Assembly: GCA_017455665.1 (NCBI GenBank)
Contig: JAFSZN010000050.1
Span: 183-64,182, forward strand
DNA: 64,000 bases
Direction of reading: 5' to 3'
Origin: Lentisphaeria bacterium
Lineage (GTDB): Bacteria > Verrucomicrobiota > Lentisphaeria > Victivallales > UBA1829
The notes beneath the pieces were generated by a model. It did not search any database, was not told the origin of the DNA, and saw only the letters and a list, made by a program, of their open reading frames with translations. Position numbers and translations under genes: made by a program. Below are positions 36,441-64,000 of the stretch, piece after piece. Position 1 is the first letter of the stretch. Every line of letters begins with the position of its first letter.

Positions 36441-36570
36441 AAATACATTTTTTCTTTCGGGCAGGGGTCAGATATGCTTTCCCATCTTCCTCCTCCTATA
36501 TTTGCCGTCGCGTCTCGCGGAAAATATATCGAAGGGCAGAGGAGAAATAATAATCTATTTTCCAGAATAT

Positions 36571-36945: not shown

Positions 36946-37665
36946 CGAGTACGCTCAAAAGGGCGAACCAAGACATTTATATTGTCCTATAGACAAATGG
37001 ATTGCGGCGTGTGTACAATCCGATTGTCAACAACTTTTTAACAACTTTTGACAATTGACATCATTTTGGACCACAGCCCTGGAAAAACGGTCATCGGTTC
37101 CAAAGCAGTTTCGAGACAACAAAAAATATTTCGTTAATGGGTCGAAGGAACTTGATAGATTTGTTTTCATCATCGTGATTCGGACCGCCCATGTGTTGCC
37201 GAACGGGAAAGAACTTTTTTCGTCGAACATTCTGAATTTGGTCCATTTTTCACGGGCAGGGCATGGCAAAAGCCGTTTTTACCCCCTCGCCTGAGGTCAT
37301 TTTTTTTAGAAGGTGAGAACGATGAAAATTTTTGGGGTCTTTGGGGAGGTTGTCACGAGTTCGGTCTTGTTCGATTTTTTGATGTTTTGGATATAATATT
37401 CTCTGAAAACATGCCAATCTTTTCAAAACATCTTGTGTGTCCAAATGGGGGGGCGTTTACTTTCGGAATAGGGGCTGAGGAGAATTTGCGTCTGATGTTT
37501 TGAGCTCACTTTACTCCCCTACCCTATTGAAAAAGAGACATGTAGATACAAAATATGCCTTTTATCTTCTGCCAGGAAGAAGGAATAAATCAATAGTTTC
37601 TTTTCTTGTGTTTCTGTTTCATAATCCAATGCAGAATGATTACTTGTATTTCGAACAATCTTTTT

Positions 37666-37765
37666 GGACGCATTTGCGTCCGGGGGGCTTGCATTCGCAA
37701 GCCTCGGTAAGCGTGCCTGATGCACGCATCTTTTTTTTATTAACGCGAGACGCGCGAATCAAAAG
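37666..37765 (-). repeat. DFR unit R1 (type A, inverted)
   Basis: Reading the + strand: GGACGC-ATTT-GCGTCC, then GGCTTGC-ATTC-GCAAGCC, then GCGTGC-CTGAT-GCACGC, then ATCTTTTTTTTATT, then AACGCGAGACGCGCG. Confidence 0.9.
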
Positions 37766-37928
37766 GGTGGAGATATTCTTAGGTCGTATACTGTTTGATG
37801 ACGTTATACTTCTTTTCTTGTTACCGCGAGACGCGCAATGCTGAGTAGCGGGAAGAAACAGTGCGTTCATACAGAGCAGACAGCGAATCCATAATCCTAT
37901 GCCCCCTGCCCTAAATTTGACCAAATCA

Positions 37929-38027
37929 GGACGCATTCGCGTCCGGGGGGCTTGCATTCGCAAGCCTCGGTAAGCGTGCCTGATGCACGCATCTTATTTT
38001 CCCATTACCGCGAGACGCGAACGGCAA
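37929..38027 (-). repeat. DFR unit R3 (type A, inverted)
   Basis: Same three hairpins, followed by TACCGCGAGACGCGAACGGCAA, the exact reverse complement of the L2 box TTGCCGTTCGCGTCTCGCGGT. Confidence 0.9.
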
Positions 38028-38532
38028 TTTAAAAGTTAAACATTTCTTCTCACAAGATACAACAATGCAATGAAGGATTACAGGTGACCGCGAGACGCGA
38101 TAAACAAAGTCCTTTTGTGAACTCCCCGGAGACGAGAAATAATAGAAAAGGTTCAGGTTACCGCGAGACGCGCAAGTCAAATTATTCTTTAAAAGTAAGA
38201 TGTGTTTTTTGACAGACCATACAACTGACTTATCCGTTTTTGTTTCGTCTTTCGCCTTCATTAATCTTCAGTACAAAATAGCCTGACAAAGAAAGATCGA
38301 ACGGGGATTCATCCTATGTCTTTCAAGACCTCTTTGAATGATTCCGTGCGAACGGGTGACGGGTCCAGTTCACGTCGTCACCGGGGCGGGGAATCGGGGC
38401 ACAATGAATATTATTATCGTTTTTTGAACTCAAAATACCCCGCCGCCCCTGTCGTATATCGGATTTTTCCGCAAAAAAACAGATCGACTCTTGTTTTTTT
38501 GATTAAGATGGGGTATAATAATTATAAATCTC

Positions 38533-50121: not shown

Positions 50122-52548
50122 TCAGAGCTTGATGGAGACGGTTTTGCCGGAGTACTTGACGGTCTTGCATTTCTCCGCGGGGGTGCGCGTCTCCTCGACG
50201 CCGACGCCTTCCTTCACGAGGACGACGCGGAACGTGCGGTTCTTCAGCATGCCGGGGAAGGAGCCCTCGGCGTCGCCGATGGTGAGCGTGCCGTCCTTGT
50301 ACGTGAACTCGATGGTGCTGAACGCGCCCTTCTCGTAGTTGTAGTTGTCGAACTCGTCCTCGTAGAGCGTGAAGGAGCCGTTTGCGCCCGGATAGACGCG
50401 AATCTCGAGGTCGTCCCACTTCTTCTGCTCGGCGTATTCGACCGGCTCGGCGATCGGGATGATGCTGCCCGCCTTCACGAACAGAGGCACGAGGTCGAGC
50501 GGAGCGGCGATGGTAACGGTCTGTCCGCCCTCGTAGGACTTGCCGGAGTGGAAGTCGATGAACTTGGAACCGGCGGGCAGATAGACGTCCCAGTTCTTCG
50601 TGTTCGAGACGTCGATGCGATTGTTCGCGAGGTACATGGACTTCACGATCGGGGCGACGAGCAGGGATTTGCCGAAGAGGAACTCGGTGTCGAGCTTGTG
50701 CGTCTTCTTGTCGGCGGGGAAGTCGGCGAAGAGCGGGCGCATCATGGAGCCGCGGTTCGCGGAGACGTCGTGCATCATGGAGTAGATGTACGGGAGGAAC
50801 GCGTAACGCGTTTTGATGGCGCGGAGCATGGCGTCGTACACGGGATCGCCTTCCTTGCCGAAGAAGTACAGTTCGCGCGGACCGTCGGTGCCGTGGCTGC
50901 GCATCATGGGCGTGAACGCGCCGAACTGCATCCAGCGGGCGTAAAGCTCGAAGAAAGCGATGTTTCGGCTGCGGTTCGGGTAGTTCCAGAGGAAGAAGCC
51001 GCCGATGTCGGCGTTCCAGTACGGGAGGCCGACGAGCGCCATGTTCAGGCCGCAGGCGATCTGGTCCTTCAGGGAATCCCAGCTGGTGACGGTGTCGCCG
51101 GACCAGGTGTTCGTGCCGAAGCGCTGCTGGCCGGCGTAGGCGCAGCGCGTGAGGATGAAGACGCGCTTGCCGTCGGGATTCTCGGCGCGCTGGTGCTCGT
51201 AGACGCTGCCGGTGGTCATGAAGGGATAGAGGTTGCGGACGCGGCGGAACGTGCCCTGTTCGGTCATGAGGTCGAAGTCGGCGTCCTTGATGTTGTGGTG
51301 GTCCGGCTCGGTGGAGTCCATCCACCAGGCATCGGGGCCGTAGTCGAGGAGCTTTTTCGCGTAGCTCCAATAGATTTCGCGGGCTTCCTTGCTGTAGGGA
51401 TCGTAGGGACGCGCGCCGCCGGACCCGCCGACGGAGGTGTCGTTCGGCCATGTGTCGATATCGAGGAGATGGCCTTTTTCCTTCAGGATCTTGAACTGCT
51501 CGGTCTTCTGTCCGAAGTCGGGCCAGATCACAAGCATGGCGTGCGCGTTCAGCTCATGGACGCGGTCGAACATCTTCTTCGGCTCGGGGAAGCCGGGGTT
51601 CAGGAACTGCATGGCGTTCCAGTAGTTGTTGTCCTCGCCCCAGTACTGCCAGTCCTGGATGATGCCGTCGAGCGGGATGTGGAGCTGACGGTATTTCTCG
51701 ACAACTTCGAGCAGTTCCGCCTGCGTTTTGTAGCGTTCGCGGCTCTGCCAGAAGCCGAGCGTCCAGAGTGCCTGCATCGGGCTGTCGCCGGTGAGCTTGC
51801 GCATCTGCGCGACGACGCCGTCCGTGGAGCCGCCGAACATGAAGTAGTAGTCGAGGTTTTCGCCGTCCTTGAACATGAAGTTCAGGACATTGTCCTTCTC
51901 CTCGAACTCGCCGCTGGCGGGGTTGTCGAGGAAGACGCCGTAGCCCTTGACCGTCTGGAACATCGGGACGGAGACGAAACGGTAGCCCTGGTGGATCGGG
52001 AACTTGCTGCCGCGCTGGGAGAATTTGTCGTTCTGCGGCTGTCCGAACCCGTAGATCTCCTCGTCGGCGTCCACGCGGAACCGCGCCGTGACGGTGTTCG
52101 TCTTGCCGCTGGGATACTCGACGGGCGCCATCTTGAACGGCGCGGCGGCATCCTCGGCGAGGAGGCGTGTGCCGTCGGGCTTCGCGAACGAGATCGCGCC
52201 GGTCTTGCGGTCCAGGGACACGCTCACCGCGGAGGATTTCGCCGTGTAGGCCGCATCCGTCTTTTTGACCTCGACCTGGACTTTTTCCGGCTTCAGGATG
52301 ACGGTGGGCGTGACGAACGGCGTTTTCGTACTGTTCGACGGGGTCTTGGTGACGCGGACGATCTCCGGCGAGTAGAAGACGACGCTCGTGACGACGCCGT
52401 TTTCTTCGAGCCGGAACCCGTTCTTTTCTTCGAATTTGCTCATGTTGATCTTCTGCGGTTCAAGCATTGACTGGTTTTCGTTCGCACAGGACGCTGCCGC
52501 GGCGGCCGCCGCGATCGCCATGCAAACGGGGAGGATGAGGTGTTTCAT
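50122..52548 (-). CDS. Glycoside hydrolase family 31 (alpha-glucosidase/alpha-xylosidase-like) lipoprotein
   Basis: 808 aa. Lipoprotein signal MKHLILPVCMAIAAAAAAASC. GH31-like blocks IPLDGIIQDWQYW, DAWWMDSTEPD and WSGDTVTSW. Confidence 0.75.
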   Translation of the reverse strand: MKHLILPVCMAIAAAAAAASCANENQSMLEPQKINMSKFEEKNGFRLEENGVVTSVVFYSPEIVRVTKTPSNSTKTPFVTPTVILKPEKVQVEVKKTDAAYTAKSSAVSVSLDRKTGAISFAKPDGTRLLAEDAAAPFKMAPVEYPSGKTNTVTARFRVDADEEIYGFGQPQNDKFSQRGSKFPIHQGYRFVSVPMFQTVKGYGVFLDNPASGEFEEKDNVLNFMFKDGENLDYYFMFGGSTDGVVAQMRKLTGDSPMQALWTLGFWQSRERYKTQAELLEVVEKYRQLHIPLDGIIQDWQYWGEDNNYWNAMQFLNPGFPEPKKMFDRVHELNAHAMLVIWPDFGQKTEQFKILKEKGHLLDIDTWPNDTSVGGSGGARPYDPYSKEAREIYWSYAKKLLDYGPDAWWMDSTEPDHHNIKDADFDLMTEQGTFRRVRNLYPFMTTGSVYEHQRAENPDGKRVFILTRCAYAGQQRFGTNTWSGDTVTSWDSLKDQIACGLNMALVGLPYWNADIGGFFLWNYPNRSRNIAFFELYARWMQFGAFTPMMRSHGTDGPRELYFFGKEGDPVYDAMLRAIKTRYAFLPYIYSMMHDVSANRGSMMRPLFADFPADKKTHKLDTEFLFGKSLLVAPIVKSMYLANNRIDVSNTKNWDVYLPAGSKFIDFHSGKSYEGGQTVTIAAPLDLVPLFVKAGSIIPIAEPVEYAEQKKWDDLEIRVYPGANGSFTLYEDEFDNYNYEKGAFSTIEFTYKDGTLTIGDAEGSFPGMLKNRTFRVVLVKEGVGVEETRTPAEKCKTVKYSGKTVSIKL

Positions 52549-52780
52549 GCGTCTGCTCCGGACGGTTGAGGGTGGATAAAAAAGGAAAAAGCATGCATTA
52601 TTATACTGCGTCGGACGAGGAAAGTCAATACGTTTTTTCTAAAAAAATGAAGATTCCGAAAATATCCTGTGAAGTCCGCAATAATCCACGGCATCGGAAA
52701 AAGTTTGCATGCATCGGGTGGAAACGTGCAAAAAGAGACAAACAGACAGGCGCCGTTTGAAGATGGCTGTCCCCGGCGGA

Positions 52781-53506
52781 TCAGGAGCCTTTTGCCAGTT
52801 TGACGGCACAGGAAGCGCACGCTCTCAGCCGCGCGGCAAGATAGTATCCGTCCGCGAAAACACGCCCGAATCCGTGTTTCAGCAGGATACGCCGCACCTC
52901 GGACGCCGTTTCCTGCCGCCGGACCGTGCTCACGCCGCCCAGCGCGAAATCCGTGATCTCCCGGTCGACGAACCGGAACACCGCACCGGACTCCTTCGCG
53001 CGCAGGAAAAGGTCCAGGTCGGCGCAGATATTCCACTGAACATCGAATCCGCCCAGGCGCTCCAGCAGGCTCCGCCGGATCGCCGACGCCGGATGGAAGA
53101 TGCGCGCGCCGCGGAATGACGACATTCCCTGCGCCGGACTGAACTTCCGCCCGTTCACGCGGATGCACCCGTGCAGGATGTCCGCGTCCGGGTTGGCGCG
53201 CAACTCGCGCACGATCTCCTCCAACGCGCCCGGCAGATAGCGGTCGTCGGCGTTCAGGAACATCACATACTCGCCCCTCGCCCGCGCCCACCCCTGGTTC
53301 ATGGCGTCGTAAATGCCGCGGTCGGGAGACTGCACGACGACCGCGTCCGGCTGGACTGCGCGGACGGCTTCGCAGGTCCCGTCCGTCGATCCGGCGTCCT
53401 TCAGGATGTATTCGACGCCCTCGGGCAATGGGCACCCGAGGGATTCCGCGGCGTGCGCCACGGTCCCGGCGGCATTTTTTGTGACGGTTACGATGGAGAG
53501 AAGCAT
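52781..53506 (-). CDS. Family-2 glycosyltransferase
   Basis: Track ORF is extended; the ATG at 53506 gives MLLSIVTVTKNAA. Also DAGSTDGT and FLNADD (DxD). Confidence 0.8.
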   Translation of the reverse strand: MLLSIVTVTKNAAGTVAHAAESLGCPLPEGVEYILKDAGSTDGTCEAVRAVQPDAVVVQSPDRGIYDAMNQGWARARGEYVMFLNADDRYLPGALEEIVRELRANPDADILHGCIRVNGRKFSPAQGMSSFRGARIFHPASAIRRSLLERLGGFDVQWNICADLDLFLRAKESGAVFRFVDREITDFALGGVSTVRRQETASEVRRILLKHGFGRVFADGYYLAARLRACASCAVKLAKGS

Positions 53507-53657
53507 GTTCGCCTTTCCTGTGAATGTTCTGCCTGATAATATCGCACGTTTCCGCGCAAAAATCAAGTCCGTTTTCGTTTTTGCGTTTGAAATCGCCCGC
53601 GCGGGAGATTATTTTATTAGAGTGTTTTTCCATCAACCCTCAACCATTGAACACACC

Positions 53658-54884
53658 ATGAGCATCCGGGAAAGCTACGTCCATACACTCCACGCCTGCA
53701 ACATCAGCTATGTCACGCAGGCAATCGTCAACGACTTCGCGCCGCTGCTCTTCCTGTGGTTCATGCGCGCCTACGACCTGAAGCTGGGCCAGCTCACGTA
53801 TCTCCTCATCGGGAATTTCTGGCTTCAGATGTGCGTGGCGTTCGCCTGCGCCAAGCTTGCCGACAGGATCTCCTACCGCCTCACGCTCGTGATCGGGCAG
53901 TTCTGTTCCGCCGCCGGGCTCGTGCTCATGACGGTCCTGCCCGACCTCATGCCGAATCCGCTCCTCGGCTTGACCTGCGCGGTCGCGCTGTACGCGGTCG
54001 GGGGCGGCGTGGTAGAGGCGGTCACCAGCCCGGTCGTCGAGGCGTGCCCGTTCAAACGCAAGGCCGCCGCGATGAGCCTCGTTCATTCGTTCTACTGCTG
54101 GGGACAGATGATCGTCGTGCTCGGATCGACCTTCTTTTTCCATCGTTTCGGGCTGGACAACTGGCGGCTGCTCGCGTATGTGTGGGCGGCGGTCCCGCTC
54201 TTCGACGGCGTGTACTTCATGTTCGTGCCGATGCGGCCGCTGATCGCCGAGGGGAAACAGGGACTCGGCATCCTCGGGCTCTTCAAGCTTCCGGTCTTCT
54301 GGCTCATGGCGGTGATGATGCTCTGCGCGGGCGCGTCCGAACACTGCATGAACCAGTGGGCGTCGTCGTTCGCGGAATCCGCCCTGGGCGTGAAGAAGGA
54401 GGTCGGCGACCTCGCCGGGCCGTGCCTCTTCGCGCTCCTCATGGGGCTTTCGCGCACGCTCTACGCCGCGTTCAGCACGCGCCTCAACCTCATCAACTGC
54501 CTCATCGCGAGCTGCGCGCTCAGCATCGCCGCCTATCTCACCGCCGTCTTCGCGCCCTGGCCGCCCCTCGCGCTTGCCGGGTGCGCCCTCTGCGGCTGGG
54601 CGGCGGGCATCCTCTGGGCGGGCGTCTTCAGCACGGCGTCCCTCGCGATCCCGCTCGGCGGAACCGCCATGTTCGCGCTGCTCGCCCTGCCCGGCGACTT
54701 CGGCTGTGGCCTCGGTCCCGTGTACGTCGGCAGGATCGCGGCGTTCTGCGGCGACGACCTCAAAGCCGGGCTTCTCGCGGCCGCCTTCTTCCCCGCGCTC
54801 ATGCTCGGATGCCTCCTGTACTACAAGTTCGGCTATCTGCCGCGCCACGGGGAGCTCGCCTCGAGCGGCATCCCCGAGGGCTGA
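53658..54884 (+). CDS. MFS transporter
   Basis: Track ORF is over-extended; the ATG at 53658 gives 408 aa with about 12 TM helices. Confidence 0.75.
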   Translation: MSIRESYVHTLHACNISYVTQAIVNDFAPLLFLWFMRAYDLKLGQLTYLLIGNFWLQMCVAFACAKLADRISYRLTLVIGQFCSAAGLVLMTVLPDLMPNPLLGLTCAVALYAVGGGVVEAVTSPVVEACPFKRKAAAMSLVHSFYCWGQMIVVLGSTFFFHRFGLDNWRLLAYVWAAVPLFDGVYFMFVPMRPLIAEGKQGLGILGLFKLPVFWLMAVMMLCAGASEHCMNQWASSFAESALGVKKEVGDLAGPCLFALLMGLSRTLYAAFSTRLNLINCLIASCALSIAAYLTAVFAPWPPLALAGCALCGWAAGILWAGVFSTASLAIPLGGTAMFALLALPGDFGCGLGPVYVGRIAAFCGDDLKAGLLAAAFFPALMLGCLLYYKFGYLPRHGELASSGIPEG

Positions 54885-55128
54885 CCGCGGCGCGTGCAAC
54901 ACCTCAATCATCCCTCTCCCCGCCCTCTAACGCGTCTTTCCGTTTTTTCAAGCCCGGTTCCGCATTTTTCCGCAAAAAAGTCCCTTCGGATCCGGCAGTT
55001 TATTTATTCTTCTGATTATCAGTGTTTTTACTGTTTTCGTCGGTGCGGATCGCAAGTGCCATTTTGACACAATGTAAAATACAAATTAATATTGAATAAT
55101 TTTTTGTTGAATTTTTTCCGTTTCGGTA

Positions 55129-55156
55129 TTGCATTTGTCAAGGGATTGATTATATT
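55129..55156 (+). promoter_or_regulatory. Candidate sigma-70 promoter for nrdGD (TTGCAT-N16-TATATT)
   Basis: Hexamers at 55129-55134 and 55151-55156 in an AT-rich leader. Confidence 0.3.
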
Positions 55157-55166
55157 ATACGGGAAC

Positions 55167-55184
55167 ACCACAAGATGTTGTGGT
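55167..55184. promoter_or_regulatory. Palindrome ACCACAA-GATG-TTGTGGT, NrdR-box-like
   Basis: 7-bp perfect arms. The core CCACAAGATGTTGTGG matches the remembered NrdR-box consensus acaCwAtATaTwGtgt at 12 of 16 positions. Lies just downstream of the candidate -10. Confidence 0.3.
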
Positions 55185-55235
55185 CTTCGTCCGTTTATCA
55201 CCACTCTTGCCACCATTCATTCTTTCCCCGCTCAA

Positions 55236-55961
55236 ATGAACGCCGACTCACGTTTCGGACTGCAGAAGCTCACGTTGCTGGATTACCCCGGCAAGGTCGC
55301 CTGCACCATTTTCCTGCACGGATGCAACTTCCGCTGCCCGTTCTGCCACAACGCCTCGCTCGTCGTGGTCCCGCAGGAGGATTCCGCCATGATCACGCTC
55401 GACGAGCTGAAGGATTTCCTGTCGAAACGGGGAAAGATCCTGGACGGCGCGTGCATCACGGGCGGCGAGCCTGTGATGCGTCCCGACCTCGCCGAGCTGC
55501 TGGAGCTGCTGCGTTCGTACCGCCTGCTCGTCAAGCTCGACACGAACGGCTCGTTCCCGGAACGCCTGCGTGAGCTCGTGGAACGTCGTCTCGTGGACGC
55601 CGTGGCGATGGACATCAAGAATACCTATGCAAAGTACGACGAGACGACCGGCGTGTCCGGCATGGCGGAACGCGTCGCGGAGAGCGCGGCATACCTCAAA
55701 ACTGCCCCGCTGGACTACTACGAACTCCGCACGACGGTCGTCCGTCAGTTCCATACAGTGGACGGCCTGGCGGCGCTCGCACGCGAGCACGCCGGAGTCG
55801 AACATTACTTCCTTCAGAAATTCAAGGATTCCGGCGACCTGCTCGGCGCAGGGCTGAGCGCGATGCCGGACGAGGAGATGGAGCGCGCGCTGGAAGCCGT
55901 CCGGGAGTTCATCCCGAACGCACAGCTGCGCGGCGTCGACACGTCCGGGGCGGAATCATGA
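55236..55961 (+). CDS. nrdG: Anaerobic ribonucleoside-triphosphate reductase activating protein
   Basis: Track ORF is over-extended; the ATG at 55236 is used. Radical-SAM cluster CNFRCPFCHN and ITGGEP. Confidence 0.88.
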   Translation: MNADSRFGLQKLTLLDYPGKVACTIFLHGCNFRCPFCHNASLVVVPQEDSAMITLDELKDFLSKRGKILDGACITGGEPVMRPDLAELLELLRSYRLLVKLDTNGSFPERLRELVERRLVDAVAMDIKNTYAKYDETTGVSGMAERVAESAAYLKTAPLDYYELRTTVVRQFHTVDGLAALAREHAGVEHYFLQKFKDSGDLLGAGLSAMPDEEMERALEAVREFIPNAQLRGVDTSGAES

Positions 55962-56014
55962 ACACTTTTTCATTTTTTCAATCATAACATTTTCAACACA
56001 GGAGCAGCAAAAAA

Positions 56015-58423
56015 ATGTACCAAGTCCAGAAACGCAACGGCAAAGTCATCGACTTCGACATCACGAAGATCTCCGACGCGATCAAGATGGCGTTCGAGGC
56101 GCAGGAAAAGAACTACCACCCCTCGATCATCGACTTTCTCGCGCTGAAGGTCACCGCCGAATTCGAGCCGAAGATCAAGGAAGGCCTGATCGCCGTTGAG
56201 GACATTCAGGACAGCGTGGAGTCCGTGCTCGTGCAGGCGGGCTACGCCGACGTCGCGAAAGCCTACATCCTCTACCGCCGCCAGCGCGAAAAACTCCGCA
56301 ACACCGCCAACACGATCATCGACTTCAAGACCACCATCGACGACTATCTGAAGATCAACGACTGGCGCGTGAAGGAAAACTCGACCGTCACTTACTCCGT
56401 CGGCGGCCTCATCCTCTCCAACTCCGGCGCCCTCACCGCCAACTACTGGCTCTCCGAGATCTACGACGACGAGATCGCGAATGCGCACCGCAACGCCGAC
56501 CTGCACCTCCACGACCTCTCCATGCTCACCGGCTACTGCGCCGGCTGGTCCCTCAAGCAGCTCATCCAGGAAGGCCTCGGCGGCGTCCCCGGCAAGATCA
56601 CCAGCGCCCCGGCGTCTCACCTCGCCACCCTCTGCAACCAGATGGTCAACTTCCTCGGCATAATGCAGAACGAGTGGGCAGGCGCTCAGGCCTTTTCCTC
56701 CTTCGACACCTATCTTGCCCCCTTTGTAAAGGTAGATAACCTCAGTCAGAAGGAGGTCAAGCAGTGCATCCAGAGCTTTGTCTACGGCGTGAACACGCCC
56801 AGCCGCTGGGGCACTCAGGCTCCCTTCTCCAACATAACTCTCGACTGGGTCGTGCCCAACGACCTCAAGAATCTGCCCGCTATCATCGGCGGCAGGGAGA
56901 TGGACTTCACCTACGGCGACTGCAAGAAGGAAATGGACATGGTGAACAAGGCGTTCATCGAGGTCATGATCGAGGGCGACGCCAACGGCCGGGGCTTCCA
57001 GTACCCCATCCCCACCTACTCCATCACCCGGGATTTCGATTGGAGCGAGACCGAGAACAACAAGCTCCTCTTCGAGATGACCGCCAAGTACGGCACGCCC
57101 TACTTCTCCAACTACATCAACTCCGACATGGAGCCCAGCGACGTGCGGTCCATGTGCTGCCGTCTTCGGCTGGACCTTCGCGAGCTTCGCAAGAAGTCCG
57201 GCGGCTTCTTCGGCTCCGGCGAGAGCACGGGTTCCGTGGGCGTGGTAACCATCAACCTGCCCCGGCTGGCGTATCTGGCTGCCGACGAGAAGGACTTCTA
57301 CGCCCGGCTGGATCGGATGATGGACATCGCCGCCAGAAGCCTCAAGACCAAGCGGACCGTCATCACCAAGCTGTTGGACGCGGGCCTCTATCCCTACACC
57401 AAGCGGTATCTCGGCACCTTCAACAACCACTTCTCCACCATCGGCCTCATCGGCATGAACGAGGTGGGCCTCAACGCCAAGTGGCTCCGCAAGGATCTGA
57501 CCCATCCCGAGACCCAGCAGTTCGCCAAGGACGTGCTGAACCACATGCGCAACCGCCTCTCCGACTACCAGGAGAAGTACGGCGACCTCTACAACCTGGA
57601 GGCCACCCCGGCGGAATCCACCACCTACCGCTTCGCCAAGCACGACAAGGAGGAGTTCCCCGACATCATCACCGCCAACGAGAACGGCACGCCCTACTAC
57701 ACCAACTCCTCCCACCTGCCCGTGGGCTACACGGAGGACGTGTTCTCCGCGTTGGACATTCAGGACGATCTGCAGACCCTCTACACCTCCGGCACCGTGT
57801 TCCACGCCTTCCTGGGCGAGAAGCTCCCCGACTGGAAGGCTGCGGCCAACCTGGTCCGGAAGATCGCCGAGAACTACAAGCTCCCCTACTACACCATGTC
57901 CCCCACCTATTCGGTGTGCAAGGATCACGGCTACATCACGGGCGAGCACTTCACCTGCCCCATCTGCGGTCAGAAGACCGAGGTCTACAGCCGCATCACC
58001 GGCTACTATCGGCCCGTGCAGAACTGGAACGACGGCAAGGCCCAGGAGTTCAAGGATCGGAAGGTCTACAACATCGGCCGGTCCGTGCTGACCCATGTGG
58101 GCCCCAAGCCCGAGGGCGCGCCCGCGGAGAAGCCCCTGTTCACGGCGCCGGCGGAGGTCCAGCCCGAGCCCGTGGAGGAAGCGAAGGCGGACGCCACGAT
58201 CCTGCTGTTCAAGACGCCCACCTGTCCCAACTGCAAGCTGGCCATGGCGCTCCTCGACAAGGCGGGCGTGGCTTACACGGCCCTGAACGCCAACGAGAAC
58301 AAGGAGCTGGTGGCCCAGTACGGCGTGAAGCAGGCCCCCACGCTGGTGCTCCTGGAGAAGGACGGGTTCGCCTCCTTCCGCGGCGTATCTGATATCAAGG
58401 GCTGGCTCATGGGGAAGAAATAA
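56015..58423 (+). CDS. nrdD: Anaerobic (class III) ribonucleoside-triphosphate reductase with C-terminal thioredoxin/glutaredoxin-like domain
   Basis: 802 aa. ATP-cone (MYQVQKRNGKVIDFD). Zn-ribbon cysteines CKDHG...CPICG and glycyl-radical motif SRITGYYRPV. An extra ~95-aa tail follows, with LLFKTPTCPNCKLAMALLDKAGVAY...APTLVL (CPNC redox motif). Confidence 0.92.
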   Translation: MYQVQKRNGKVIDFDITKISDAIKMAFEAQEKNYHPSIIDFLALKVTAEFEPKIKEGLIAVEDIQDSVESVLVQAGYADVAKAYILYRRQREKLRNTANTIIDFKTTIDDYLKINDWRVKENSTVTYSVGGLILSNSGALTANYWLSEIYDDEIANAHRNADLHLHDLSMLTGYCAGWSLKQLIQEGLGGVPGKITSAPASHLATLCNQMVNFLGIMQNEWAGAQAFSSFDTYLAPFVKVDNLSQKEVKQCIQSFVYGVNTPSRWGTQAPFSNITLDWVVPNDLKNLPAIIGGREMDFTYGDCKKEMDMVNKAFIEVMIEGDANGRGFQYPIPTYSITRDFDWSETENNKLLFEMTAKYGTPYFSNYINSDMEPSDVRSMCCRLRLDLRELRKKSGGFFGSGESTGSVGVVTINLPRLAYLAADEKDFYARLDRMMDIAARSLKTKRTVITKLLDAGLYPYTKRYLGTFNNHFSTIGLIGMNEVGLNAKWLRKDLTHPETQQFAKDVLNHMRNRLSDYQEKYGDLYNLEATPAESTTYRFAKHDKEEFPDIITANENGTPYYTNSSHLPVGYTEDVFSALDIQDDLQTLYTSGTVFHAFLGEKLPDWKAAANLVRKIAENYKLPYYTMSPTYSVCKDHGYITGEHFTCPICGQKTEVYSRITGYYRPVQNWNDGKAQEFKDRKVYNIGRSVLTHVGPKPEGAPAEKPLFTAPAEVQPEPVEEAKADATILLFKTPTCPNCKLAMALLDKAGVAYTALNANENKELVAQYGVKQAPTLVLLEKDGFASFRGVSDIKGWLMGKK

Positions 58424-58652
58424 AGGATTGTATTGAAAGCTCGCACCCTTTCTTGTAAGAAAGGGTGCGTCCCAAAGAACTTTTGATTGGGATAAGGGGT
58501 AGTATTTTCATCAGCTGCTTGCAACGAAAGCTTGTGCTGTCAAGCATCTATCCACCCGATCAGTAATACTGTTTCTTGGCTTTTCTTTTTCGGTCCCTTT
58601 TTCTTTTCTCCTGAAAAGAAAAAGGGACACAAAAATAATTGGAGAAAAAACC

Positions 58653-59570
58653 ATGTACGACATCATCGTCATCGGCGGCGGGCCGGCGGGAATGACCGCG
58701 GCGCTCTATGCCCTTCGGAACGGCAAATCCGTGCTGGTGCTGGAAAAGCACGGCTTCGGGGGCCAGATCACCTACTCCCCCAAGGTGGAGAACTACCCCG
58801 GCACCATCCAGATGAGCGGCAACGAGTTCGCCGACAAGATGCTGGAGCAGATTTTGGCCCTGGGCGCGGAGGTGGAGCTGGAGAAGGCCGTGGCCGTGGA
58901 AGAAGCGGACGGCCGCAAGCTGGTGAAGACCGAGGAGGGGAACGCCTTCGAGGCCATGGCCGTCATCCTCGCCACGGGCGTGAAGCATCGGATGCTGGGC
59001 CTGCCCGGGGAGAACGAGCTGGTGGGCAACGGCATCTCCTTCTGCGCCGTGTGCGACGGCGATTTCTTCTCCGGCCAGACCGTCTGCGTGGCGGGCGGCG
59101 GCAACTCCGCGCTGCAGGAGGCGATCCTGCTGGCGGAGAAGTGCAAGGAGGTCATCCTCCTCCAGGATCTGCCGGAGCTCACGGGCGAAGCGACCCTGCA
59201 AACCATCCTCAAACACCGGGCCAACGTGACCATCGAGACCAACCGGAAGATCGTGGGCGTCCAGGCCGGCGACGACGGCCTCACCGGCGTCACCGTGGAG
59301 GATCGGCTCACCGGGTGGCAGAGGACCATCCCCGCCGAGGGCCTGTTCATCGCCATCGGTCTGATCCCCGAGAACGGACCCTTCGCAGACCTGGCCGACC
59401 TCAACAGCTACGGCTATTTCGCCTCCGGCGAGGACTGCCTGACGAAGACCCCCGGCGTGTACGTGGCCGGGGACTGCCGCAGCAAATCCATCCGCCAGCT
59501 CACCACCGCCTGCGCCGACGGCGCCGTGGCCGCCCTGGCCGCCTGCCGGTATGTGAACGAACGAAAGTAA
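58653..59570 (+). CDS. trxB: Thioredoxin-disulfide reductase
   Basis: 305 aa with GGGPAGMTAA, redox-active CAVCDG, GGGNSALQEA and GVYVAGD. Confidence 0.9.
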   Translation: MYDIIVIGGGPAGMTAALYALRNGKSVLVLEKHGFGGQITYSPKVENYPGTIQMSGNEFADKMLEQILALGAEVELEKAVAVEEADGRKLVKTEEGNAFEAMAVILATGVKHRMLGLPGENELVGNGISFCAVCDGDFFSGQTVCVAGGGNSALQEAILLAEKCKEVILLQDLPELTGEATLQTILKHRANVTIETNRKIVGVQAGDDGLTGVTVEDRLTGWQRTIPAEGLFIAIGLIPENGPFADLADLNSYGYFASGEDCLTKTPGVYVAGDCRSKSIRQLTTACADGAVAALAACRYVNERK

Positions 59571-59685
59571 AATGGTCCTTTTGCTCTTCTGTGAAGAGAA
59601 GAAGGAACCGAAAAAGACAAGCGTAAGAAGACAAAGAGAGCTATGTGCAAAAGCACAGCCCTCTTTTATGCTCTCTGGTTTTGGT

Positions 59686-60393
59686 TCATTCCTTTATCAG
59701 ATCCTTAATGACTTCCCCCGCGATGATGAGCCCTGCCACCGAGGGCACGAAGGCCACGCTGCCCGGGGTGGCCCGGCGGTGGGTGTCCTCGTCCGCAGGG
59801 GCGGGGGAGAGGGCCGGTTCCGTGGAGTAGACCACCTTCACGTGCTCGACGCCCCGCTTCCTGAGCTCCCGGCGCATGATCCGGGCCAGGGGGCACACGG
59901 AGGTCTCGGAGATGTCCGCCACCCGGAAGGCCGTGGGGTCCAGCTTGTTTCCCGCGCCCATGGAGGAGATCACGGCCGTCCCCGCCGCCTTGGCCGCCTC
60001 GATGAGCTGGAGCTTGCCGGCCACGGTGTCGATGGCGTCCACCACGTAATCATATTGGCTGAAATCAAATTGATCCGCCGTTTCGGGGAGATAGAAGACG
60101 GGCCGGGTCCTGACCTGGCAGTCGGGGTTGACGCTCAGGACCCTTGCCTTGGCCGCGTCCACCTTCAGCATGCCCAGGGTGTCCCGGGTGGCGATGATCT
60201 GCCGGTTCAGGTTGGACAGGACCACCCGGTCGCTGTCGATCAAATCCAGAGCCCCTATGCCGCTTCGGGCCAGGGCCTCCACCGCATAGCCGCCCACGCC
60301 GCCGACGCCGAACACGGCCACCCGCGCACGGGCGAGGCGTTGTAGAGCTTCCTCCCCCAGCAGCATCCGGGTCCTCGAAAACATATCCTCCAT
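59686..60393 (-). CDS. tcdA: tRNA threonylcarbamoyladenosine dehydratase (ThiF/MoeB-family, TcdA-like)
   Basis: 235 aa with VAVFGVGGVGGYAVEALARSG, SNLNRQ and C-terminal PGSVAFVPSVAGLIIA. Confidence 0.8.
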   Translation of the reverse strand: MEDMFSRTRMLLGEEALQRLARARVAVFGVGGVGGYAVEALARSGIGALDLIDSDRVVLSNLNRQIIATRDTLGMLKVDAAKARVLSVNPDCQVRTRPVFYLPETADQFDFSQYDYVVDAIDTVAGKLQLIEAAKAAGTAVISSMGAGNKLDPTAFRVADISETSVCPLARIMRRELRKRGVEHVKVVYSTEPALSPAPADEDTHRRATPGSVAFVPSVAGLIIAGEVIKDLIKE

Positions 60394-60396
60394 AGG

Positions 60397-61314
60397 TTAC
60401 GCCTCCCGTACGGGCAGATCCTCGATCAGCACGTCCATGGTGCCCCCGCAGACCATGCCCTCCAGAGCCGCCACGTCGCCGGTCATATCCACGGTGACCA
60501 CCTGGCTTCGGCCCGTGCCCATGAGCCGCCGGGCCGCCAAAATGGCCTGATTCTCCCCGCAGCCGCCGCCGATGGTCCCGGCGCTGTTGCCCAGCTTGTC
60601 CGTGCCCATGAGGGCCCCGCCCTTCACCGGCGTGGAGCCCTTGGCGGAGAGCACCAGCAGCAATGCGGCGGGCCGACTGTCGTCGCTGAGGAAGCGCAGG
60701 GCGTCCAGGTCCGTGTTCTGCTGGGGCAAAAGGCCTTCGCCTGCGGGCAGGGCGTGGCGAACGGCGATAAGCTCCGCCAGGATGGACACGGCGATCTCCG
60801 CCGGGGTCACCGCCCCGATGGAAAGGCCGATGGGCGCGTGGACCCGAGCGAGGCGCGCCTGGTCATATCCCTCTTCCACCAGCAGCTCGAACAGCCCCTT
60901 CACCCGGCGGCGGGAGCCGATCATGCCCAGGTATCGGGGCTCGTTTCCTCGGAGCAGATATTTCATGCAGGTCACGTCGTCCTTGTGGCCCCGGGTCAAC
61001 ACGCACACAAAGTCCCCCGCGCCGATGTTCAGCCGGGGCAGAGCCGCTTCAAAGCTGTCGCAGAGGACCTCTTTGGCCTCCGGAAACCGGGCGTAGCCGG
61101 CGAAGGCGGGCCGATCGTCCGCCACCGTCACCGCAAAGCCCACCCGTATCGCCGCCTCATAGAGGGCCAGCGACACGTGGCCGCCGCCCAGCAGAACGAG
61201 ACGCTCCGGGGGCAGGAACCGGCGAACGATTCGCTGCCCGTTCACCTGGCGGACCAGGTCCGCCTCCCGGCCGGCCGTCACCGCGTCGAAAATCTCCTGA
61301 AACTCTTTACGCAT
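60397..61314 (-). CDS. XdhC-family maturation factor with apparently permuted domain order
   Basis: 305 aa. The Rossmann XdhC_C-like part comes first (LVLLGGGHVSLALYEAAIRVGFAVTVADDRP ... HAPIGL). The XdhC/CoxI-like part comes last (LLLVLSAKGSTPVKGGALMG...GTIGGGCGE). Confidence 0.7.
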   Translation of the reverse strand: MRKEFQEIFDAVTAGREADLVRQVNGQRIVRRFLPPERLVLLGGGHVSLALYEAAIRVGFAVTVADDRPAFAGYARFPEAKEVLCDSFEAALPRLNIGAGDFVCVLTRGHKDDVTCMKYLLRGNEPRYLGMIGSRRRVKGLFELLVEEGYDQARLARVHAPIGLSIGAVTPAEIAVSILAELIAVRHALPAGEGLLPQQNTDLDALRFLSDDSRPAALLLVLSAKGSTPVKGGALMGTDKLGNSAGTIGGGCGENQAILAARRLMGTGRSQVVTVDMTGDVAALEGMVCGGTMDVLIEDLPVREA

Positions 61315-61876
61315 CCTGCTGTGCCTCGTACCATTTCATGGCGTCCAGGGTGTCGGACAGGAGCTGTTCGAGAGGCCAGCCCAGCATATCCGCGCCCTTT
61401 TCGATCACATCCCGGGAGCAGCCGGCGGCGAAGTTCAACGTCTTATACTTCTTCTTCAGGGACTTCAAGCTCACCTCGCCCACCTTCTTGTTGGGGTGGA
61501 TCAGGGCCACGGCGCCGATGAGGCCGGTGAGCTCGTCCGTGGCGTAGAGGACCTTTTCCATCTCGTGCTCCGGCTTCACGTCGTTCCTATGGCCGTAGCC
61601 GTGGCTCACGACGGCCCGGATGAGCCGGGGGTCCAGATCCAGTTCCTCCATGATCTCCCTGGTCTTCTCGCAGTGCCGCTCGGGCCACTTCTCGTAATCA
61701 AGATCGTGCAGCAGCCCCACCAGCTTCCAGAAGTCCTTCTCGTCCCCGTAGCCCAGCTTGTCCGCGTACCAGCCCATGACGGCCTCCACGGTCTGGCCGT
61801 GCTGCAGATGGAAGGGCTCCTGATTGTATTTCGTGAGCAGGTCCCAAGCCTCCGCCCGGGTGATCTCTCTTGCCAT
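61307..61876 (-). CDS. HD-domain metal-dependent phosphohydrolase
   Basis: 189 aa with H...HD (LQHGQTV..., GLLHDLDY) and SHGYGH. 8-nt overlap with the xdhC-like gene. Confidence 0.8.
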   Translation of the reverse strand: MAREITRAEAWDLLTKYNQEPFHLQHGQTVEAVMGWYADKLGYGDEKDFWKLVGLLHDLDYEKWPERHCEKTREIMEELDLDPRLIRAVVSHGYGHRNDVKPEHEMEKVLYATDELTGLIGAVALIHPNKKVGEVSLKSLKKKYKTLNFAAGCSRDVIEKGADMLGWPLEQLLSDTLDAMKWYEAQQDA

Positions 61877-61984
61877 GTTTCGTCCACACCTTTCCGTACG
61901 TTTATTGCCTATTATAGGAAGAAAGGGGGGCGGCTGTCAATTCCCGTTCCATGCAAAAAAGCCCTCCCCTGGAAGGGGAAGGAA

Positions 61985-62121
61985 GCGTTTGCGACGGATG
62001 AGGCGTTCCTGTCCGCCCTCGTTGCATGTGATTGCGGGCCGGGCAAGCCGCGGCCCCTACGGCATAGAAGCGCAACTTTCATGCCGAGCCGCCGTAGGGG
62101 AGGGGCTTGCCCCTCCCGTGG
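61985..62121 (-). repeat. Multi-hairpin intergenic repeat, family 2, copy 1 (inverted)
   Basis: The reverse complement reads GGGAGGGGC-AA-GCCCCTCCC, then CCCCTACGG-N27-CCGTAGGGG, then GGCCGCGGCTTGCCCGGCC, then CGCAATCACATGCAAC..GGGCGG. It is colinear with 63758-63880. Confidence 0.8.
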
Positions 62122-62129
62122 CTAAAGGT

Positions 62130-62582
62130 TCAAGCGCACATGCCGTGGGCGGCCATGTAGTCATAGAGCATCTGGCCGTGCTCCTGCTCCTCCTTCTGGA
62201 TGTGGTTCAGGGTCGACCGGGCGCCGGCGTCGGTGAACTCGAAGATGCAGGTGTCGTACACGCTGGACACGTGCTTCTCCGTGTCCAAGGCGTCCTTCAG
62301 CAGGTATTCGTCGTTCTTGCTGTGGGATTTTTCCGCGGGCTGGCCGCTGCCGGGCTGGCTGCTCTGCTGGCTCTGGCTCCCGGACATCATGGGCACCGTG
62401 CCCTCCATCAGGCGGTTGATGGTCTTCAGGTGCTCCTCCTCCTTGGACCGGATGGTCAAAAACAGATCCGCCAGGGCCTGGTCCTCGGCCTTCTGGGCGT
62501 ACTGGCCGTACTTCTCGATGCAGATCTCCTCCGAAGTCTTGAGGTCCTGCAACAGCATGGATTCTTTTTGCGTCAGTTTCAT
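62130..62582 (-). CDS. Coat F (CotF)-domain spore-coat-like protein
   Basis: Two ATGs (62591, 62582). GAGGTG lies 9 nt upstream of the second. Two ferritin-like half-domains (LQDLKTSEEICIEKYGQYA...EEEHL and LKDALDTEKHVSSVYDTCIFE...EEQEHGQMLYDYM) with a Gln/Ser-rich linker. Confidence 0.7.
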   Translation of the reverse strand: MKLTQKESMLLQDLKTSEEICIEKYGQYAQKAEDQALADLFLTIRSKEEEHLKTINRLMEGTVPMMSGSQSQQSSQPGSGQPAEKSHSKNDEYLLKDALDTEKHVSSVYDTCIFEFTDAGARSTLNHIQKEEQEHGQMLYDYMAAHGMCA

Positions 62583-62726
62583 TGTTTTCATCACCTCGCT
62601 TATAGGATGACCCGGTGCGCCGCCCGCCATGCGGCGAGGACAAAGTCTCTCCTTTTTTGCGGTTTTCTCTTGCGTTTTTCATCTTAGTGTCGTATACTGT
62701 CCCATATTTTTTGCGAGGTGATCCCC

Positions 62727-63437
62727 ATGGAAGCATATGGATACAGGGAGGGACTCAGGGACGGGCTCCCCATCGGCCTGGGGTATCTGTCCGTGTCCTT
62801 CGGCTTTGCCATCTGGGCGGTGAAGCAGGGCATCCCGGGCCTGGTGCTCGTGCTCCTTTCCGGCACCAATCTGACCTCCGCAGGCCAGGTGGCGGGGGTC
62901 ACGGTCATGGCGGCGGGCGGGCTGCTCATCGAGCTCGCCTTGACGGAGTTCATCATCAACCTTCGCTACGCCCTCATGAGCGTCACCCTGACCCAAAAGC
63001 TCCACCCGGACTTCTCCCTGATGAAGCGGATGCTGGCGGCGTTCTTCGTCACCGACGAGATCTTCGCCGTGTCCTCCACCCGCAAGGGGCTGTTGACCTT
63101 CCCCTATATGATGGGCCTGGGGTGCCTGCCCTGGATCGGCTGGACCTTGGGCACGGCCCTGGGCGCCTTCGCCGGAACGCTGCTCCCCCCGGCCCTGTCC
63201 GCCGCCTTGGGCATCGCCATCTACGGCATGTTCATGGCCATCATCGTGCCGGGAGCCATGGAGGAGAAGGGCGTGCTGCTGGCCATATCGGCCGCCGTGG
63301 GCCTGGGCCTGGTGCTCCGGTATGTGCCCCTGTTTCGCTTCCTGTCGGAGGGGTTCGTCATCATTCTCAGCGCCGTTTTCGGGGCCTGCATGGCCGCCTG
63401 GCTCCAGCCGGTGAAGGCGGGGGAGGGGGACGCATGA
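62727..63437 (+). CDS. azlC: Branched-chain amino-acid exporter subunit AzlC
   Basis: Track GTG at 62718; the ATG at 62727 lies 6 nt after GAGGTG. GLRDGLPIGLGYLSVSFGFA, LTSAGQ and INLRY are typical of AzlC. Confidence 0.85.
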   Translation: MEAYGYREGLRDGLPIGLGYLSVSFGFAIWAVKQGIPGLVLVLLSGTNLTSAGQVAGVTVMAAGGLLIELALTEFIINLRYALMSVTLTQKLHPDFSLMKRMLAAFFVTDEIFAVSSTRKGLLTFPYMMGLGCLPWIGWTLGTALGAFAGTLLPPALSAALGIAIYGMFMAIIVPGAMEEKGVLLAISAAVGLGLVLRYVPLFRFLSEGFVIILSAVFGACMAAWLQPVKAGEGDA

Positions 63438-63742
63438 AGCTGTATCTGTATCTCCTCGTCATGGCGGGCGTCACCTATCTCATTCGCATGCTGCCCCTCG
63501 CTTTCTTCCGCAAAAAGATCACCAGCCCCTTTCTGCTGGGCGTCCTCCACTATATGCCCTTCGCGGTGCTGGGGACCATGACCGTCCCCGCCATCTTCAC
63601 CTCCACCGGGGAACCCATCTCCGCCGTGGCGGGCTTTTTGGTGGCTCTGCTCCTGGGCCTCAAGCGCCGGTCCCTCATCGAGGTGGCCTTGGCCGCCACC
63701 GCCGCGGCGTATGTGACCTCCCTGATCCTGCCGCTGCTGTAA
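63434..63742 (+). CDS. azlD: Branched-chain amino-acid exporter subunit AzlD
   Basis: ATGA overlap with azlC. 102 aa: MKLYLYLLVMAGVTYLIRMLPLAFF... The track hides it inside a longer out-of-context ORF (62615..63742). Confidence 0.8.
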   Translation: MKLYLYLLVMAGVTYLIRMLPLAFFRKKITSPFLLGVLHYMPFAVLGTMTVPAIFTSTGEPISAVAGFLVALLLGLKRRSLIEVALAATAAAYVTSLILPLL

Positions 63743-63757
63743 CGGTGCATGGGGCTC

Positions 63758-63955
63758 GGGAGGGTCAAGACCCTCCCCTACGGTGGGGCGCGAAGGTTGT
63801 GCTGCGGTACCGTAGGGGCCGATCACGATCGGCCCGCATTCACGCGCAACTTGGGCGGGCGATTCGTGAATCGCCCCTACGGGGGAAACCGCCTTTCGCG
63901 CCTGGAAACCGTACGGCGGGGCGCGAAGGCTGCGTGGCGAAACCTGGGCTCGCCC
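63758..63955 (+). repeat. Multi-hairpin intergenic repeat, family 2, copy 2 (with partial internal reiteration)
   Basis: GGGAGGGTC-AA-GACCCTCCC, then CCCCTACGG-N26-CCGTAGGGG, then GGCCGATC-AC-GATCGGCC, then CGCATTCACGCGCAAC..GGGCGG, then GGGCGATTC-GT-GAATCGCCC. TACGGCGGGGCGCGAAGGCTGCG is repeated at ~63912. Confidence 0.8.
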
Positions 63956-64000
63956 ATCCCGTGTACACAGAAAAAAAGACTTGACCCTGACGCAACGTCA

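Follow-up and report, generated by a model that had tools for sequence, protein, structure and literature searches.

The nrdD gene as a mosaic reading frame

The nrdD gene at positions 56015-58423 of the analyzed window (the whole stretch of 64,000 nucleotides; features lie on the plus strand unless the minus strand is indicated) changes its coding style partway along its reading frame. This raises the question of whether DNA of different organisms was brought together within a conserved gene by recombination in a cell, or whether fragments of different genomes were merged during assembly. Both readings, a recombination/HGT breakpoint and a chimera joined at a conserved nrdD segment, had been proposed in an earlier note, whose author, working without tools, recognised the join purely by its codon usage. 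Our comparisons strongly favour the latter: the window is very probably a chimeric metagenome-assembled contig, i.e. a misassembly, and not a natural chromosome segment.

The predicted product of the gene (802 aa; deposited as MBQ7730890.1) contains an ATP-cone, an NRDD domain and a C-terminal Grx/Trx-like domain (Pfam: PF13597, E = 7.7e-194; PF03477, E = 1.2e-20). The adjoining nrdG encodes a protein with PF04055/PF13353 (Pfam), and the pair was assigned to the class III ribonucleotide reductases (RNR). This identity is valid for each parental gene, while the 802-aa chimeric ORF is probably not a natural protein. Judged from sequence comparison, the ORF combines sequence from three or four sources as a mosaic. 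Its reading frame is, as the earlier note had stated, intact across the junction.

Codon usage and sequence composition

A log-likelihood ratio (LLR) model of codon usage was trained on the ORFs located left of position 56000 and right of position 58500, with nrdD left out. In leave-one-out scoring, the LLR per codon was below zero in all 43 ORFs on the left (maximum -0.023) and above zero in all 7 on the right (minimum +0.068). Codon usage of the two sides differs with a summed chi-square of 321 (41 df), as exemplified by the counts of CGG/CGC (205/527 on the left and 40/18 on the right, p = 8.5e-10), GTG/GTC (345/541 and 81/31, p = 2.5e-11), GAG/GAA (436/524 and 84/21, p = 6e-12) and CCC/CCG (257/439 and 40/17, p = 1.6e-6). 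The gene calls used are GC3-greedy and include over-long starts of nrdG and the MFS gene as well as a few doubtful ORFs (52709-53119, plus strand; 63550-63768, minus strand); the doubtful calls make up a negligible share of the codon counts. A tRNA-Pro call at 6814-6896 is probably spurious, since it lies inside a MiaB-like ORF.

Within nrdD, the best change point was found at codon 214 (nt 56657). The two-segment gain at this point was 23.2, and none of 2000 synonymous-codon shuffles attained this value (2.1 +/- 2.2, maximum 19.5). The codon-usage break, which had been predicted at about 56650, is thus statistically significant, and sequence comparison places it at 56625-56661. The left coding style ascribed to the 5′ part of the gene was only partly recovered: the first 214 codons use CGC and GTC, but they are not especially NCG-rich and are mildly left-like (-0.054 per codon). 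A short transitional patch was also confirmed, with 18 of 87 codons in 56657-56917 ending in A or T, versus 7% elsewhere in the gene (binomial p = 4.7e-5). Tetranucleotide frequencies changed as well; the right-hand 7 kb is farther from the left centroid (0.0437) than every left chunk (0.015-0.042), and near the Clostridial contigs L081 and L082 (0.014-0.022).

Locally odd codon usage of a native nrdD, e.g. an expression-linked bias without any foreign DNA, was considered as a cause of these differences. An extreme bias towards C-ending codons extends along the whole gene (GC3 0.91), as in highly expressed genes, and the weakly left-like character of the 5′ segment would fit this explanation. 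However, the shift covers all seven downstream ORFs, and over a span of 40 nt the nucleotide identity to relatives of the same species drops from 97-99% to about 80%. Clostridial contigs match the right side at 100% identity. Expression-linked bias was ruled out by the nucleotide-identity profiles, and the probability of a purely native gene is virtually negligible.

Lentisphaeria parentage of the left-hand sequence

Within the region 52781-56661, comprising a GT2 gene (minus strand), an MFS gene, nrdG and the 5′ part of nrdD, the window is collinear with Lentisphaeria contigs L099, L096 and L087. The nucleotide identity is mostly 87-99%, and lower (about 55-80%) in intergenic stretches at ~53.6 kb and 54.9-55.1 kb. 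Upstream of this region synteny is lost, at 52775-52781, where a second join may lie. The nrdG gene (55236-55961) encodes a radical-SAM activase of the Lentisphaeria type (241 aa), sharing 94% aa identity with P0121 and 88-91% with L087/L096, and the 53-nt nrdG-nrdD spacer also matches the Lentisphaeria relatives. The adjacent part of nrdD (segment A, 56015-56661) is Lentisphaeria-derived (97-99% nt identity to L099/L096/L087). Genes on the left include TolC/OEP and HlyD, as is typical of bacteria with two membranes (diderms).

When the two parts of NrdD were compared separately, as the earlier note had suggested for residues 1-210 and 300-802, the results were sharply discordant. Residues 1-214 are 100% identical to P0242, P0243 and P0247, whereas residues 215-802 share 81-84% (core) and about 45% (tail) identity with the same proteins. 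At the nucleotide level, identity of the window to L099, L096, L087 and L097 is 95-99% up to 56661 and then ~80%; for the left side against L087, L096 and L099 it is 94-99%. These four loci originate from four different samples, on source contigs of 9.5-740 kb (L087, 9.5 kb; L099, 41.5 kb; L096, 395 kb, with the protein also present on a 543-kb contig; L097, 740 kb, JGI), and all contain MFS-nrdG-nrdD. In L096, L097 and L099 the complete nrdD is followed by the organism's own trxB, while L087 ends inside nrdD (569 aa). The Lentisphaeria relatives are mutually 93-99% identical across the junction and throughout the remainder of nrdD, to the extent covered by their contigs, and the unrecombined allele was found on at least five contigs from other samples.

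Crossovers and middle segments of nrdD

The Lentisphaeria relatives (five aligned, plus L099) depart from the window from position 56662 on. Crossover 1 (56625-56661) comprises 37 nt identical in the window, Lentisphaeria L096 and L087, and L098 (JAEEGL016303562.1), a contig with a Clostridial nrdG/DUF4037 context; other Lentisphaeria relatives have 1-2 mismatches within this stretch. L098, whose match was found by an exact 35-mer scan, shows mismatches to the window up to 56624 and is then 100% identical to it over 295 nt (segment B, 56625-56919; 21% A/T-ending codons). The transitional patch represents a distinct entity, matched by a third contig. The P0117 loci (L084-L086) were rejected as its parent, being only 86-93% identical.

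Crossover 2 (56896-56919) consists of 24 nt common to L098 and the L082/L083 lineage: dense mismatches to L082/L083 end at 56895, and those to L098 begin at 56920. Both junctions lie in sequence exactly common to the two sources, with overlap lengths (37 and 24 nt) that rest on close relatives, since the nearest relatives of segments A and C are 97-99% and 91-99% identical, respectively, and are not the exact parents. Rfam scans at the junction detected no RNA element. A scan of the genome collection returned relatives at only 73-90% identity, and showed discordant phylogeny of the segments but no parents.

Segment C (56896-58092) is Clostridial and L082/L083-like (91-99% nt identity, too low for L082/L083 to be accepted as the exact parent of the 56.9-58.0 kb region). 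Its codon usage is of the right type (LLR +0.123 per codon), and P0002-P0016 match aa 301-690 at 99-100% identity. The segment ends with a conserved node (58013-58092), 80 nt shared without mismatch by the window, L081 and L083, inside which the L098 contig terminates (window-equivalent position 58047). Upstream of 58013 the window and L081 diverge.

Clostridial parentage of the right-hand sequence

Starting from this node, 5,988 nt (segment D, 58013-64000) are 100% identical to the Clostridial contig L081 (ENA ERZ28019071, k141_1604834), so the right-hand DNA, previously described as Firmicutes-like, can be assigned to Clostridia. The Clostridial sequence continues to the window end; the deposited contig has 65,364 bp. 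L081 extends ~14.9 kb past the window end (the first 4.4 kb contain MerR, Macro and a gene with a faint SipL hit) and has its own Clostridial nrdG and nrdD 5′ end. Clostridial nrdG-nrdD is carried by L081-L086 and L098.

The gene for a TrxB-like flavoprotein (58653-59570) matches L081 at 100% and L082 at 92% identity, compared with only 52% for trxB of the Lentisphaeria relatives. It is followed by Clostridial ThiF, XdhC and HD-domain genes (59686-61876, minus strand; 100% to L081, 88-93% to L082), a gene encoding a Coat_F/rubrerythrin-like protein (62130-62582, minus strand), and Clostridial azlC (62727-63437) and azlD (63434-63742). The CotF-type protein reported earlier in this region indeed matches the Coat_F domain (E = 1.2e-16). 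Its gene and azlC are preceded by GAGGTG Shine-Dalgarno sites, also as reported, and none was found before nrdG, MFS and GH31 on the left. The intergenic repeats mentioned in the same note correspond to a small hairpin-repeat family.

L081 is discordant upstream of 58013, where its nrdG and nrdD 5′ end are 67% and ~80% identical to L082, respectively, versus 87-92% in the flanks, and the window may therefore be correct at the 58013 node. This discordance would fit a scenario of the opposite sense, in which a Clostridial genome gained a Lentisphaeria block, or L081/L098 are chimeric and the window is faithful. Such a scenario concerns the 58013 node only: 56.6 kb of Lentisphaeria-like sequence would still be parted from Clostridial DNA at 56625-56661, and the intact Lentisphaeria allele is present on contigs of 395-740 kb. 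We consider it very remote as an explanation of the window.

Assembly chimera or recombination in a cell

Most likely, parts of two or three Clostridia genomes were attached to a Lentisphaeria contig. The nrdD, nrdG and trxB genes are common to both phyla at ~80% nt identity, with long perfectly conserved stretches, and it was very probably within nrdD that the assembler fused a Lentisphaeria genome (window positions 1 to ~56661) with DNA from Clostridia. The first template switch, from Lentisphaeria to Clostridium “X”, would have used the 37 shared nt at 56625-56661, and the second, from X to Clostridium “Y”, the 24 shared nt at 56896-56919. A further switch from Y to “Z” is possible at 58013-58092. 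It is more likely that Y and Z are one organism and that L081 is itself chimeric at this node; with the upstream part of L081 discordant, 58013 was rejected, on balance, as a fourth switch in the window. The frame would stay open, and gene callers would emit a plausible 802-aa NrdD, because the templates are homologous and in register.

Several observations favour the chimera. The intact Lentisphaeria allele exists in independent assemblies, and blocks of the window are exactly identical to contigs of other genomes (L098, L081). Three or four sources meet within 1.4 kb, with the switches exactly at stretches identical in both parents, and codon usage, tetranucleotides and Shine-Dalgarno usage switch along with parentage. 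Moreover, nrdD is an assembly trouble spot: 9 of 9 short contigs from related Lentisphaeria, which carry close NrdG relatives, stop within nrdD after 98-604 aa. Finally, the mosaic NrdD is a singleton, while the parental forms recur (P0243, 39 members; P0004, 64). MBQ7730890.1 forms a one-member, one-contig cluster, and among the scored proteins it matches only its own entry at 100% (next best, 90%). Exact-protein contig look-ups returned no other record for the NrdD of the window and no record for P0001. The window thus combines an abrupt change in composition with sides from different taxa, whose unjoined parents are found in independent assemblies.

A real inter-phylum event would require a very recent replacement, in a Lentisphaeria genome, of the 3′ three-quarters of nrdD and the downstream region by at least 7.3 kb of Clostridial DNA. 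The exchange would have taken place through homologous recombination within conserved blocks of nrdD, and extra crossovers would have produced the 295-nt patch. The nrdD ORF is intact with all domains present, and at the junctions the two lineages share identical stretches, as RecA-type recombination requires; frame-preserving crossovers at short identical stretches are expected from homologous recombination as well as from misassembly. The ~80% identity of the operon shared by both phyla implies past transfer, i.e. nrdG-nrdD-trxB has evidently moved between them before, so transfer is biologically possible. The contig titles indicate that both organism groups were sampled in gut/rumen collections of the same kind.

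Nevertheless, within 1.4 kb three donors or events would be needed, all of them still matching contigs of today at 100%, so that practically no time could have passed since the transfer. The mosaic was found once, against recurrent contigs with the unrecombined allele, and its junction did not recur in independent samples or genomes, as would be expected of a genuine transfer. The remaining 7.3 kb of the window does not return to Lentisphaeria sequence, and with the block a diderm would receive non-adapted codon usage and genes with strong Shine-Dalgarno sites, among them one with a spore-coat domain. In this clade, contigs regularly end within nrdD. In DNA of ~80% identity, tracts of 37 and 24 nt are poor substrates for recombination, but they are enough for a small-k de Bruijn graph. 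Replacement of this kind is therefore very unlikely. That the mosaic is real, so that one rumen or gut Lentisphaeria strain would have very recently exchanged most of its nrdD and the downstream region for Clostridial DNA by multi-donor homologous recombination at 24-37-nt tracts, an inter-phylum allelic replacement in an essential anaerobic gene, is a highly improbable proposition. The joins were probably made in silico and not in a cell, a reading drawn from comparison of the sequences.

Consequences for the use of the contig

The public 65-kb Lentisphaeria-labelled MAG contig most likely carries ~7.4-8.7 kb of Clostridial DNA, and the deposited NrdD probably exists in no organism. The caution advised in the earlier note with regard to linkage across 56.7 kb is supported, since such linkage is probably an artefact. 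Taken at face value, the contig would suggest that a diderm phylum from the Planctomycetes-Verrucomicrobia-Chlamydiae (PVC) group has genes for a spore-coat protein (Coat_F), AzlCD, ThiF/XdhC and a TrxB of Clostridial type, and that spectacular inter-phylum recombination has taken place. It would contaminate HGT screens, pangenomes and RNR phylogenies. Highly conserved, horizontally shared protein genes such as nrdD (~80% nt identity across phyla) act like rRNA operons in assembly graphs, where contigs break or cross between genomes. As biology, the window probably holds nothing new; the main relevance of the chimera is data hygiene, and it is of little biological interest.

Comparison with known systems

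The nrdD locus resembles known class III RNR operons (nrdG-nrdD) with a fused glutaredoxin-like domain, having the same domain set, with genes for an activase and for a reductase of the TrxB-like kind next to it; fusions of the grx::nrdD type have been recorded (PMC6187632). Compared with these operons, the nrdD of the window shows no new function.

Mosaic pbp genes of naturally transformable streptococci arise by homologous recombination, with the frame kept and crossovers in conserved stretches. Parentage alternates blockwise within one ORF in the same manner in nrdD. Known mosaic genes, however, recur in populations and combine sequences of closely related partners, typically with >80-85% identity across long tracts. 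Here the partners are from different phyla, the blocks match other contigs at 100% identity, and only a single copy of the mosaic was found.

Chimeric contigs resulting from misassembly are a recognised error of MAGs (PMC8201837), to which genomes at low coverage are most prone (PMC7881036); in the view of GUNC's authors, whose paper defines this type of error, misassembly is rarer than mis-binning (PMC8201837). As in other inter-genome chimeric contigs of MAGs, fragments of different genomes appear to be joined here in conserved sequence of co-occurring organisms, and the genes along the contig shift from one lineage to another. In contrast to the usual cases, the join is inter-phylum and lies inside a protein-coding gene, not in rRNA or a mobile element, and two or three successive switches would have produced a full-length, in-frame mosaic protein of deposit quality.

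Codon usage and gene content

The nrdD gene (56015-58423, + strand) lies downstream of nrdG (55236-55961) and encodes an anaerobic ribonucleotide reductase of 802 amino acids (aa), with matches to the ATP-cone (E = 1.2e-20) and NRDD (E = 7.7e-194) domains and a C-terminal Grx/Trx-like domain. An earlier note had placed a codon-usage break within this gene at about 56650, followed by a short patch rich in A/T-ending codons and a Firmicutes-like right side. Synonymous-codon models were built from 43 ORFs left of 56000 and seven right of 58500 (called heuristically by GC3 contrast), with nrdD in neither training set. The model score was negative for all 43 left ORFs and positive for all seven right ORFs, and leave-one-out scores per codon reached at most -0.023 on the left and at least +0.068 on the right. 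The two sides differ with a summed chi-square of 321 (41 df), most sharply in GAA/GAG, CGC/CGG, GTC/GTG and CCG/CCC (Fisher p 1e-6 to 6e-12). The best single change point along nrdD falls at codon 214 (nt 56657), with a two-segment gain of 23.2 versus 2.1 +/- 2.2 in synonymous shuffles, none of 2000 being as high. The break is real. Within the patch (56657-56917) 18 of 87 codons end in A/T, versus 7% elsewhere (p = 4.7e-5). Tetranucleotide frequencies place the right 7 kb beside Clostridial contigs and the left side beside contigs of Lentisphaeria.

On the right, nrdD is followed by a gene for a TrxB-like flavoprotein (+), then by genes for ThiF, XdhC and an HD-domain protein (all -); a Coat_F/rubrerythrin-like protein (-), the predicted spore-coat-domain product, and AzlC and AzlD (both +) are also encoded on this side. 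As had been noted, GAGGTG Shine-Dalgarno sites precede the cotF-like gene and azlC; none was found before the left genes checked (nrdG, MFS and GH31). The right side also has, again as noted, its own small family of GC-rich, REP-like hairpin repeats (CGGGAGGG...CCCTCCCCTACGG), located in intergenic regions at 62051-62118 and 63757-63944, where they flank the cotF-azlCD block. Further left there are genes for TolC-like OEP and HlyD proteins, GH127 and GH31 hydrolases, MFS transporters and Sel1/TPR proteins, a set with the profile of a glycan-degrading diderm. The genes themselves are ordinary.

Three other features were recorded on the left side. A TPP riboswitch (RF00059, 57.5 bits, E = 1.2e-8) at 27339-27453 (+) lies at the start of the called ORF 27363-28316, whose predicted 5′ end it overlaps. 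The tRNA-Pro(CGG) called by ARAGORN at 6814-6896 (-), within a MiaB-like radical-SAM ORF (6169-7572, +), is probably a false positive. The tetranucleotide outlier of this side is a stretch of about 2.7 kb (35800-38500; GC 0.43-0.47 versus 0.50-0.67 otherwise) in which ORFs do not exceed about 115 aa; it may be a degraded island or a non-coding region.

Parentage of the nrdD segments

In a scan with one genome per species, which gave about 600 close NrdD relatives, residues 1-214 were nearest to Lentisphaeria/Victivallaceae (87-90%; Clostridia 73-80%) and residues 215-690 to Clostridia (up to 97%), so that the two rankings are discordant. Against a large protein database NrdD fell into four blocks, each with a different best partner. 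The identical database entry, MBQ7730890.1, is labelled 'MAG: Lentisphaeria bacterium' and comes from a 65,364-bp contig.

Close relatives of NrdG (80-94% aa identity) led to nine short contigs (L087-L095), all of which stop inside nrdD, at 98, 197, 223, 260, 272, 417, 480, 569 and 604 aa. Contigs in these metagenomes break systematically at nrdD. Full-length NrdDs were found on three long Lentisphaeria contigs, L096 (395 kb; the protein is also present on a 543-kb contig), L097 (740 kb) and L099 (41.5 kb), which share the gene order GT2-MFS-nrdG-nrdD-trxB. Over most of the coding sequence of 52781-56661 the window matches L099, L096 and L087 at 94-99% identity; beyond 56661 the figure falls to 75-84%. 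L096, L087 and L097 are mutually 93-99% identical throughout nrdD, and L096 and L097 remain mostly 77-97% identical into their own trxB. Compared with three Lentisphaeria NrdD proteins (P0242, P0243 and P0247), the window protein is 100% identical over residues 1-214, 81-84% over the rest of the core and about 45% in the tail. Synteny with all the close Lentisphaeria relatives (L087, L096, L097 and L099) ends at 52775-52781, exactly at the stop codon of GT2 (52781-53506, -). Beyond it the relatives carry a cluster of ketoacyl-synthase, LpxL-like acyltransferase and ApeI-like genes, and the window (50122-52780) a 230-nt AT-rich spacer followed by a GH31 gene. Composition is left-like on both sides, and either a rearrangement in this strain or another assembly join could account for the loss of synteny.

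Searching with a 35-mer of the patch gave one exact match, the metagenome contig L098 (JAEEGL016303562.1), which is 100% identical to the window over 56625-56919 and 77-90% to either side, and carries Clostridial-type DUF4037 and nrdG genes upstream. The stretch from 56896 to about 58090 matches L082/L083 at 91-99% identity; their source contig, 146 kb long, is Clostridial. Over 58013-64000 the window matches Clostridial contig L081 at 100.0% (5,988 nt; last mismatch 58012). L081 has an nrdG and an nrdD 5′ end of its own and extends 14.9 kb past the window end. The window TrxB is 100% identical to that of L081, 92% to that of L082 and only 52% to those of the Lentisphaeria relatives. The three-part description in the earlier note and its coordinates were correct.

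Structure and origin of the joins

The joins were read from base-by-base alignment, in which the closest available relatives stand in for the parents of the segments at 56015-56661 and 56896-58092. At the first join 37 nt are shared exactly (56625-56661): L098 differs through 56624, and five aligned Lentisphaeria relatives and L099 diverge from 56662 (ATC versus ATA, then about 20% mismatches). At the second, 24 nt are shared exactly (56896-56919), mismatches to L082/L083 being dense through 56895 and those to L098 starting at 56920. A further 80 nt (58013-58092) are identical in the window, L081 and L083; the window and L081 diverge upstream of this tract, and L098 stops within it. L081 and L082 share 67% identity in nrdG and about 80% in the nrdD 5′ end, versus 87-92% over the downstream 6 kb. 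In the public contig L081 (ERZ28019071 k141_1604834) the upstream part (positions 1-3013, corresponding to the window up to 58012) thus disagrees with its flanks. We therefore think that 56.9-64 kb of the window comes from a single Clostridial genome and that L081, probably a second chimera centred on nrdD, is the contig joined at the 58013-58092 node.

The earlier note had left the choice between recombination or horizontal transfer and a chimeric contig. On the sequence comparisons, the feature is best filed as an inter-phylum chimeric contig, "not a real (biological) feature", in which an assembler would have walked through a tangle at a gene that is conserved in organisms occurring together. 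The signature of such a tangle is seen in three (perhaps four) templates within 1.4 kb, with every block an exact match to another assembly, in template switches that coincide with short shared exact strings, in partners from different phyla, in a mosaic product that is a singleton, in intact parental alleles on contigs of up to 740 kb from independent samples, and in the termination of all nine shorter relatives inside nrdD. Since the templates are all homologous and aligned in register, the reading frame stays open across the joins. Real recombination, which we regard as very improbable, would need several zero-age events with different donors, would have to use identity tracts of 24-37 nt in DNA about 80% identical, and would imply a strain never seen again. 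The advice to treat linkage across the join with caution was well founded. Chimeric contigs arising from misassembly are a recognised error of MAGs (PMC8201837), and misassembly is commoner in low-coverage genomes (PMC7881036).

The nrdG-nrdD-trxB operon

A chimera of this kind presupposes an nrdG-nrdD-trxB operon common to Lentisphaeria and Clostridia. Such an operon, with a Grx-fused nrdD, is present in both (L096 9222-13348, L097 9225-13342 and L099 9222-13348, versus Clostridial-type contigs L081-L086). Between the two groups nrdD shows about 80% nucleotide and 81-84% aa identity, TrxB about 52% and NrdG 50-58%, which suggests either that the operon moved between the phyla long ago or that nrdD is extremely conserved. 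Residues ~695-802 of NrdD (58100-58423) comprise a Pro/Ala/Glu-rich linker and, after it, a Grx/Trx-like domain that contains the motif CPNC. Together with the adjoining TrxB-like gene, this C-terminal fusion would give a class III RNR a self-contained route for disulfide reductant; Grx fusions in class III RNR operons are already on record (PMC6187632).
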